This document shows positions 17,751-18,073 of a stretch of 59,541 bases of DNA, one piece after another; position 1 is the stretch's first letter; each line of letters opens with the position of its first letter. The notes under the pieces are model-generated. The model did no database searches and had not been told where the DNA came from. It was given only the letters and a program-made list of their open reading frames with translations. The stretch is from Escherichia phage RCIP0359: sequence record PV778520.1, one strand, 5' to 3'. Made by a program: the position numbers and the translations under genes.

Positions 17751-17770
17751 AACCCCTCGTTTGAGGGGTT
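17751..17770. terminator. bidirectional intrinsic terminator
   Basis: AACCCCTC-GTTT-GAGGGGTT flanked by A/T runs on both sides, between convergent J-like gene and antisense lipoprotein gene. Confidence 0.7.
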
Positions 17771-17775
17771 AATTT

Positions 17776-18009
17776 TCAATAATCAATCACACAGTTTGAA
17801 GGTGAACCAATTCGTCGGTATTCATGATCTATCTCATGGCACCATTGTCCAGTCATTGGAAGCTTTTCGGTATCATAAATTAAAGAACCGTTACCATCAC
17901 GGTCTAACGGTTTTGGAATAACGCCGGAATTAGGTTTACCAGTATTCAGACCGTTACCACATGCAGTGAGGGATAAAGTTAATGCCAGCATAATTAAAGC
18001 GCGTTTCAT
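17776..18009 (-). CDS. small lipoprotein, candidate receptor-blocking superinfection exclusion protein (Llp/Cor-like)
   Basis: 77 aa; signal peptide plus lipobox LTAC-G; strong RBS AGGAGG; own sigma70-like promoter; antisense gene located between the receptor-binding tip gene and the fibre gene. Confidence 0.65.
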   Translation of the reverse strand: MKRALIMLALTLSLTACGNGLNTGKPNSGVIPKPLDRDGNGSLIYDTEKLPMTGQWCHEIDHEYRRIGSPSNCVIDY

Positions 18010-18045
18010 TGGGCCTCCTTTGTGTTGTTGTCAAGGTTTAATTCT

Positions 18046-18073
18046 AATATACTTGTTGTGTTGAGTAAGTCAA
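18046..18073 (-). promoter_or_regulatory. sigma70-like promoter for lipoprotein gene
   Basis: minus-strand TTGACT - 16 nt - TATATT upstream of the lipoprotein RBS. Confidence 0.45.

Follow-up and report, generated by a model that had tools for sequence, protein, structure and literature searches.

Phage T5 encodes a lipoprotein, Llp, that blocks its own outer-membrane receptor from the periplasmic side (PMC9586334; FhuA-Llp structure 8A60), and the Cor lipoprotein of T1, phi80 and N15 also inactivates a receptor, again FhuA. Rtp45, a lipoprotein of ~6 kDa, binds the periplasmic rim of the LptD barrel and displaces extracellular loops (bioRxiv 10.1101/2025.07.07.663478; LptDE-Rtp45 cryo-EM 9RPS). 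For the maltoporin LamB, van den Berg et al. (2022, PNAS; PMC9586334) stated that phages targeting it, "e.g., Bas23", are likely to encode exclusion lipoproteins 3' of gpJ, and raised the question of how such a protein might work on a receptor that lacks allostery. Negrete-Mendez et al. (2025; PMC11893012) cloned one candidate, gp116 of phage mEp010, a 'type-C lipoprotein', as Lpp010. Plasmid-borne expression from Ptac blocked plaques of mEp010, mEp044, mEp554 and lambda, the exclusion of lambda being unexpected for its authors. Here we describe a predicted 77-aa lipoprotein gene of the same family in Escherichia phage RCIP0359 (PV778520.1). The stretch analyzed, 59,541 nt and referred to below as the window, represents all or nearly all of a Seuratvirus (Queuovirinae) genome.

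Our reading, to which we give a probability of about three in four, is that this lipoprotein excludes LamB-dependent phages through LamB; homology and genetic context support such a role. A receptor-blocking superinfection-exclusion function had been proposed in an initial annotation of this DNA, and it gains support from the homologue Lpp010 and from the co-occurrence of the gene with LamB use. Lpp010 is a full-length homologue of the window protein (BLASTP E = 4e-32, 55% identity; family-profile E = 1e-43), with identity of ~73% over a conserved 52-residue core running from the PNSGV motif to the C-terminus, and the tblastn match in mEp010 lies within the gp116 coding sequence. The two proteins share a lipobox and two mature cysteines, both genes are convergent with J behind a hairpin terminator, and both loci read J, terminator, antisense lipoprotein, fibre. 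They differ in that mEp010 is temperate, with Lpp010 presumably expressed from the prophage, and in the N-terminal linker (AVDKEAALHNL versus GNGLNTGK in the window protein). Moreover, the mEp010 locus has an extra small open reading frame (ORF) upstream, lacks TTGACT-16-TATATT, and carries a J tip of another subtype (39% identical). According to the legend of Fig. S6 in bioRxiv 10.64898/2026.04.02.716166, lambda's J tip and the LamB-type tips of these phages share little or no homology. That lambda is excluded although its tip is essentially unrelated points to LamB or a later shared step, not a phage protein, as the common target. The gene is real, and it, its family and its probable LamB role are already in the literature: we regard the finding as correct but known because the Bas23 protein is identical, the locus was named in 2022, and the Seurat gene is annotated.

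The lipoprotein gene, its family and its expression signals

The locus comprises the following features (window coordinates).

14607..17741, plus strand: gpJ-like central tail fibre / tail tip gene (ORF; likely true start, ATG at 14619)
about 17135..17741, plus strand: variable C-terminal receptor-binding domain of gpJ, LamB-associated type, last ~155 codons (identity to Bas21, Bas23 and Bas24; Bas25 homology ends at ~17134)
17747..17774, both strands: shared (bidirectional) intrinsic terminator hairpin of the convergent gpJ and lipoprotein genes (folding and conservation)
17776..18009, minus strand: lipoprotein gene, 77 aa (ORF, PS51257, PHROG 12984, substitution ratios)
17962..18009, minus strand: signal peptide, residues 1-16 (PS51257 rule)
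17959..17961, minus strand: codon of the predicted lipidated Cys17 (PS51257 rule)
18014..18020, minus strand: Shine-Dalgarno AAGGAGG (read from the sequence; AAGGAG(G) kept in six relatives)
18046..18073, minus strand: sigma-70-type promoter candidate TTGACT-16-TATATT (10/12 matches; conservation)
18092..21177, plus strand: lateral tail fibre gene, given as context (ORF; homology with other Seuratviruses, including the LptD type)

The antisense lipoprotein ORF with lipobox LTAC, described in the initial annotation, was found between the gpJ-like tail-tip gene and the lateral fibre gene. It starts with ATG, and the precursor begins MKRALIMLALTLSLTAC/GNGLNTGKPNSGV, with GNG... following the slash. 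The lipobox, with Cys17, conforms to PROSITE rule PS51257 (K or R within the first seven residues, uncharged core), which 24 of 26 family members follow. At +2 the family has G, A or S, never D, and the window protein has Gly; a residue other than Asp at this position was taken as the criterion for outer-membrane sorting (Lol). The mature lipoprotein has 61 aa (~6.7 kDa) and one Cys pair, C57 and C73 in precursor numbering, which probably form a disulphide. Comparison of the gene with its counterparts in Bas22, 9g and one prophage copy gave ratios of nonsynonymous to synonymous substitutions (dN/dS) of 0.06-0.09 at dS ~1, with a drifting signal peptide and a nearly invariant mature part. The strong purifying selection indicated by these ratios marks the ORF as a real gene.

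The protein matches PHROG 12984 ('lipoprotein') over its entire span (E = 2.4e-55, residues 1-77 of 77). No family in Pfam, NCBIfam or PADLOC fits it. Pfam LptM_cons scored 15 bits (cutoff 27.3) and NCBIfam LptM scored 17.3 bits (cutoff 27.7); both hits are below threshold and confined to the signal peptide and lipobox, and they were rejected. A profile search of the PDB with the family returned a best E of 0.6-1, which is noise. PHROG 12984 is small: at 90% identity it forms 29 clusters in a set of 5.8 billion sequences. A profile search run exhaustively over 1.84 billion representatives gave only 4 clusters at 50% identity, so the family alignment cannot be deepened. Invariant residues are C17, PNSGV 26-30, G41, L43, T47, E48, GQWC 54-57, R66, G68, N72 and C73, and the family motifs read PNSGV, DTEKLP.TGQWC, R.G and NC. 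One of these four clusters is a 4467-aa metagenomic repeat protein, P0031, whose nine matches (E = 1e-7) to family positions 34-64 were not taken as homology. The aligned patterns, 'D.NGD..S.T.PGEGTW' and the family's 'DGNGSL..DTEKLP.TGQW', are probably a generic beta-hairpin or calcium-loop-like motif.

Family members occur in 43 phage records. Virulent carriers are Seuratvirus, Nonagvirus 9g, Dhillonvirus (EP23, PNS1, Maverick, CS16, HH3) and Drexlerviridae AS5; further carriers are Salmonella phage STP-SP5, the temperate mEpimmI phages mEp010, mEp013, mEp044 and mEp554, and MagusPhagus. Six GenBank phages encode an identical protein (Bas23, also named WildeMaa, KS_W4, KS_A8, Skure, SLUR25 and SLUR63), and Seurat, CAjan, Bas21 and Bas24 encode one that is 96-99% identical. 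At the nucleotide level, positions 17000..19000 of the window are 90-98% identical to KS_W4, KS_A8, Seurat, CAjan and the BASEL phages Bas21, Bas23 and Bas24. In every locus inspected the gene lies directly 3' of gpJ, convergent with it and separated by a hairpin, a layout seen in Seurat, mEp010, Bas22, 9g, EP23, AS5, CSP1C, MagusPhagus, an E. coli prophage and E. coli Nissle 1917. The lipoproteins of Bas23 and other Seuratvirus, Nonagvirus and Dhillonvirus phages show no substantive difference in locus, promoter or terminator. Annotation of the gene varies among records. The ORF is intact but unannotated in the Dhillonvirus records of EP23 (a Shigella phage, JN984867, about 21708..21950) and PNS1 (MK138527 / NC_073063), and many other records label it merely 'hypothetical protein'.

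The initial annotation suspected a family distinct from Llp and Cor, and comparison with T1 Cor, T5 Llp and Rtp45, taken from their genome records and tested by direct BLASTP and with the family profile, bears this out. BLASTP of the mature domain found no match to any of the three. Cor is matched by BLASTP and the profile at residues 1-19 and 1-21, within the signal peptide; Llp has no BLASTP match and a profile match in the signal peptide only; Rtp45 matches in the signal peptide only. The PDB profile search did not return Llp chains 8a60_B and 7qjf_A, though both were present in that copy of the database. Mature parts of all four proteins are 57-62 aa with one Cys pair each, at differing positions (Cor 9/57, Llp 11/58, Rtp45 11/19, window protein 41/57). 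They are best regarded, on these comparisons, as analogous families. Likenesses in organization are nonetheless considerable. The Llp precursor also has 77 aa, a lipobox and a mature domain of ~60 aa, and its gene lies beside a receptor-binding gene (pb5) with its own promoter, but divergently, whereas the window gene is convergent with gpJ. Cor is a 75-aa lipoprotein encoded antisense to and convergent with gpJ or the receptor-binding gene block, with a terminator between, and differs in its mature domain and in its target. Rtp45 (76 aa) occupies the same slot downstream of gpJ on the opposite strand and acts on a receptor that is not TonB-dependent. That receptor is LptD, however, and Rtp45 is co-encoded with a separate receptor-binding protein, Rtp44, whereas the binding domain of the window phage is the end of gpJ.

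Ribosome binding, promoter and terminator signals proposed in the initial annotation were all located. The strong ribosome-binding site, AAGGAGG at 18020..18014, sits 4 nt 5' of the ATG. The sigma-70-like site on the minus strand consists of TTGACT (18073..18068), a 16-nt spacer and TATATT (18051..18046). Such promoter-like sites number 6 in the 1-kb region versus 2.7 +/- 1.5 in shuffles, and because matches of this kind are common in AT-rich DNA the consensus score alone is weak support for a promoter. The candidate is well supported by its conservation, not its score, and solely within Queuovirinae and E. coli prophage copies. Its -10 hexamer is invariant in all six relatives and its -35 hexamer identical in four of them; the intergenic 82-nt spacer is ~90% conserved across its full length, versus only 75-78% identity in flanking coding DNA. 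The distant loci of mEp010, MagusPhagus, EP23 and AS5 have only 8 of 12 promoter matches. Transcription from the candidate would yield a leader of ~30 nt. A perfect TTGACA without a matching -10 (18029..18034, minus strand) falls within this predicted leader, between the -10 hexamer and the ribosome-binding site; it is kept in four of six relatives and reads TTGTCA or CTGTCA in the remainder.

The hairpin AATTAACCCCTC-GTTT-GAGGGGTTAATT begins 5 nt past the gpJ stop and lies 1 nt past the lipoprotein stop. Its 12-bp GC-cored stem folds at -17.6 kcal/mol on the plus strand and -18.2 kcal/mol on the minus strand (z scores -5.75 and -5.50; none of 200 shuffles reached this stability), and on both strands it has a T-rich tail, consistent with a bidirectional terminator. 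An equivalent hairpin lies 3' of the gene in Seurat, Bas22, 9g, CSP1C, EP23, AS5, mEp010 and MagusPhagus; GenBank records label it a bidirectional terminator (Seurat) or a terminator (mEp010). No plus-strand sigma-70-like site for the fibre gene was found between 17775 and 18091. Barring an unrecognized promoter, late transcripts of gpJ apparently must read through this strong hairpin, antisense over the lipoprotein gene, to reach the fibre gene.

Association with LamB use and mobility of the locus

A requirement for LamB has been determined experimentally in the carriers Bas21-24 (BASEL table S5), CSP1, mEp010, mEp013, mEp044 and mEp554. All gene carriers with an experimentally determined receptor need LamB, and all relatives with an experimentally shown LamB requirement carry the gene. 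The family is absent from Bas25, Bas19 and Bas20 (LptD), JenK1, and mEp021 and mEp515 (OmpA); the last two bear an unrelated "type-A" lipoprotein. The last 199 aa of the window gpJ are 97-98.5% identical to those of the LamB-requiring phages Bas21, Bas23 and Bas24, and the receptor of the window phage is, judged by this similarity, very probably LamB. In Bas22, 9g and CSP1 the lipoprotein is 87-96% identical to that of the window beside gpJ tips that are only 38-48% identical. Kept in this way across at least three tip variants, themselves 38-48% identical to one another, the lipoprotein therefore tracks the receptor, not one tip sequence.

Comparison with the LptD-type phage Bas25 delimits the exchanged segment. 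Homology is lost at about 17135 (J residue 888) and regained at 18091, i.e. at the fibre start; thus, the swapped unit consists of the J tip, terminator, lipoprotein gene and promoter. We propose that the lipoprotein gene and the LamB-specific C-terminal domain of gpJ form one exchangeable receptor module. The gpJ of Bas25 (VogelGryff) is 165 aa shorter, and the slot between it and the fibre gene is occupied by an antisense gene of 321 aa, which presumably encodes the receptor-binding protein of this locus. The annotation shows no small lipoprotein gene in that slot, a statement that concerns the annotation only, as unannotated ORFs were not searched for.

A smaller unit is shared with temperate phages. 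An E. coli lambdoid prophage (GCA_032852905.1) is 86% identical at the nucleotide level to window positions 17742..18149, a match that begins just after the gpJ stop and runs through the terminator, lipoprotein gene and promoter into the fibre gene (first ~58 nt). The adjoining J proteins are only 34% identical. Since the match is limited to this stretch, the small cassette therefore also moves alone between temperate and virulent phages. Of 5426 complete E. coli genomes, 39 carry it, in every case on the chromosome.

Such near-identical prophage copies, the gene's own candidate promoter and terminator, and the Seurat GenBank record, where CPT_Seurat20 is a 'putative lipoprotein' and 'apparent moron', would also fit a moron with another host-directed role (maltodextrin uptake, envelope properties or Bor-like lysogen fitness), exclusion being incidental or absent in the Seuratvirus version. 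We think this very improbable: the gene is strictly linked to the receptor-binding end of gpJ in virulent and temperate phages alike and co-varies with LamB use, exclusion activity has been demonstrated for Lpp010, and a virulent phage has no lysogen to profit.

Proposed exclusion at LamB and the step blocked

In the reading that we favor, host RNA polymerase would use the sigma-70-type promoter of the lipoprotein gene to transcribe it leftward, uncoupled from the late tail operon, which runs rightward, and the transcript would end at the shared hairpin. By sequence rules, the precursor would be exported, lipidated at Cys17 and relieved of its signal peptide by signal peptidase II. The mature domain, probably disulphide-stabilized, may then bind LamB, most likely on its periplasmic side by analogy with the lipoproteins discussed above, and bound LamB would no longer serve the gpJ tip. 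Infected cells and, after lysis, their debris would thereby become refractory to LamB-using phages. We infer direct contact with LamB, the membrane side and the step blocked; for the periplasmic binding, argued by analogy, we put the odds at about even. The benefit to a virulent phage is probably that progeny are spared from debris and already infected cells, the view also held for Llp and Cor. We found no structural or binding study of a LamB exclusion lipoprotein in the literature. Rtp45 is the best mechanistic precedent for a receptor without a plug.

Several observations weigh against exclusion through LamB as just described. The evidence for Lpp010 (PMC11893012) consists of spot assays only, and mEp013, which requires LamB, escapes Lpp010; the effect of Lpp010 is thus not simple loss of LamB. 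The sole tested homologue shares only 55% identity with the window protein. LamB is without a plug domain and without known allostery (PMC9586334), so the mechanism of Llp, which targets the TonB-dependent transporter FhuA via its plug domain, is not directly transferable. Activity and timing of the promoter are predictions from sequence. Structure prediction did not help: AlphaFold2 models of the full-length protein (26-sequence family alignment; mean predicted local distance difference test score, pLDDT, 57.8; predicted template modelling score, pTM, 0.28) and of the mature domain alone (27 sequences; pLDDT 49.6) were unusable, and their low confidence precluded a fold comparison with Llp. 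Finally, expression of the gene copy carried by E. coli Nissle 1917 would make a plain adsorption block unlikely, for the following reasons.

Nissle 1917 carries the gene as AC6TNL_RS04250 ('hypothetical protein'; NZ_CM189243.1, 937080..937313), encoding a protein identical to that of the window at 73 of 77 residues and, within the mature part, at 60 of 61. The gene follows TipJ in a lambdoid prophage of ~43 kb (about 897.6-941 kb) that also has Q and a cI-type repressor. According to Bury et al. (2018; PMC5987069), this strain is completely lambda-resistant with a functional LamB that binds lambda in a LamB- and maltose-dependent manner. The cloned prophage repressor conferred only ~215-fold protection, and a further factor preventing DNA entry was postulated (PMC5987069). 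The lipoprotein copy could explain this further component of resistance; no paper linking lambda resistance of Nissle 1917 to a lipoprotein gene was found.

Attachment of lambda to a resistant strain with a near-identical gene would suit exclusion after binding, in which the lipoprotein blocks the DNA-ejection trigger or periplasmic passage instead of adsorption. The escape of mEp013, the spot-test format of the Lpp010 assays and the absence from LamB of the plug and allostery that Llp exploits can be read the same way. On the other side, the Nissle repressor alone already protects ~215-fold and the lipoprotein gene there may be silent; the two small exclusion lipoproteins with solved structures, Llp and Rtp45, act by keeping the receptor-binding protein from binding; and a predicted outer-membrane anchor (no Asp at +2) would keep the lipoprotein far from the inner-membrane entry step. 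We consider exclusion after binding unlikely. Also rather unlikely is the idea that the lipoprotein disables LamB in a manner unlike Llp or Rtp45, either allowing attachment while blocking the ejection trigger or plugging or re-shaping the plug-less trimeric porin, with the Nissle copy perhaps the factor behind that strain's complete lambda resistance.

Lysis genes, related observations and wider meaning

As a small outer-membrane lipoprotein with a weak match to PHROG 'Rz-like spanin' (E = 0.0058, residues 1-32 only, i.e. signal peptide and start of the mature part), the protein might be taken for a lysis protein, such as an Rz1-like subunit of an outer-membrane spanin. The window, however, encodes its own lysis cassette ~40 kb away (57989..58986), with these members.

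57989..58366: holin
58347..58823: Rz-like i-spanin
58681..58986: o-spanin candidate, a proline-rich lipoprotein with lipobox CAGC, in out-of-frame overlap with the i-spanin as typical of an overlapped o-spanin

The lipoprotein gene has no i-spanin partner, its product is not proline-rich, and it is antisense in the tail operon. A spanin identity was rejected on these grounds and has in our estimation almost no chance of being correct.

Downstream of the module, positions 21200..23100 of the window are 98.5% identical to Cronobacter/Escherichia phage CSP1. The fibre gene (18092..) is followed here by ORFs at 21220..22056, 22128..22496 and 22512..23042. For CSP1_020 to CSP1_022 (fibre and two small proteins), antiholin-type lysis suppression and turbid plaques have been reported, a trait that the window phage probably shares, judged by the sequence identity.

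The overall importance of the finding is modest, and its remaining interest lies in the mechanism acting on LamB and in the Nissle lead. A near-invariant mature protein of ~6.7 kDa is a good substrate for studying how a plug-less LamB could be inactivated. For phage cocktails, a strain or lysogen with the lipoprotein gene is expected to resist several unrelated LamB-dependent phages, lambda included. As this locus shows, small siphoviruses swap receptor specificity as a package, in which a receptor-binding tip is accompanied by a matching exclusion lipoprotein with its own candidate promoter and terminator, and this package shuttles among virulent Queuovirinae, Dhillonvirus and Drexlerviridae and temperate lambdoid and mEpimmI prophages.

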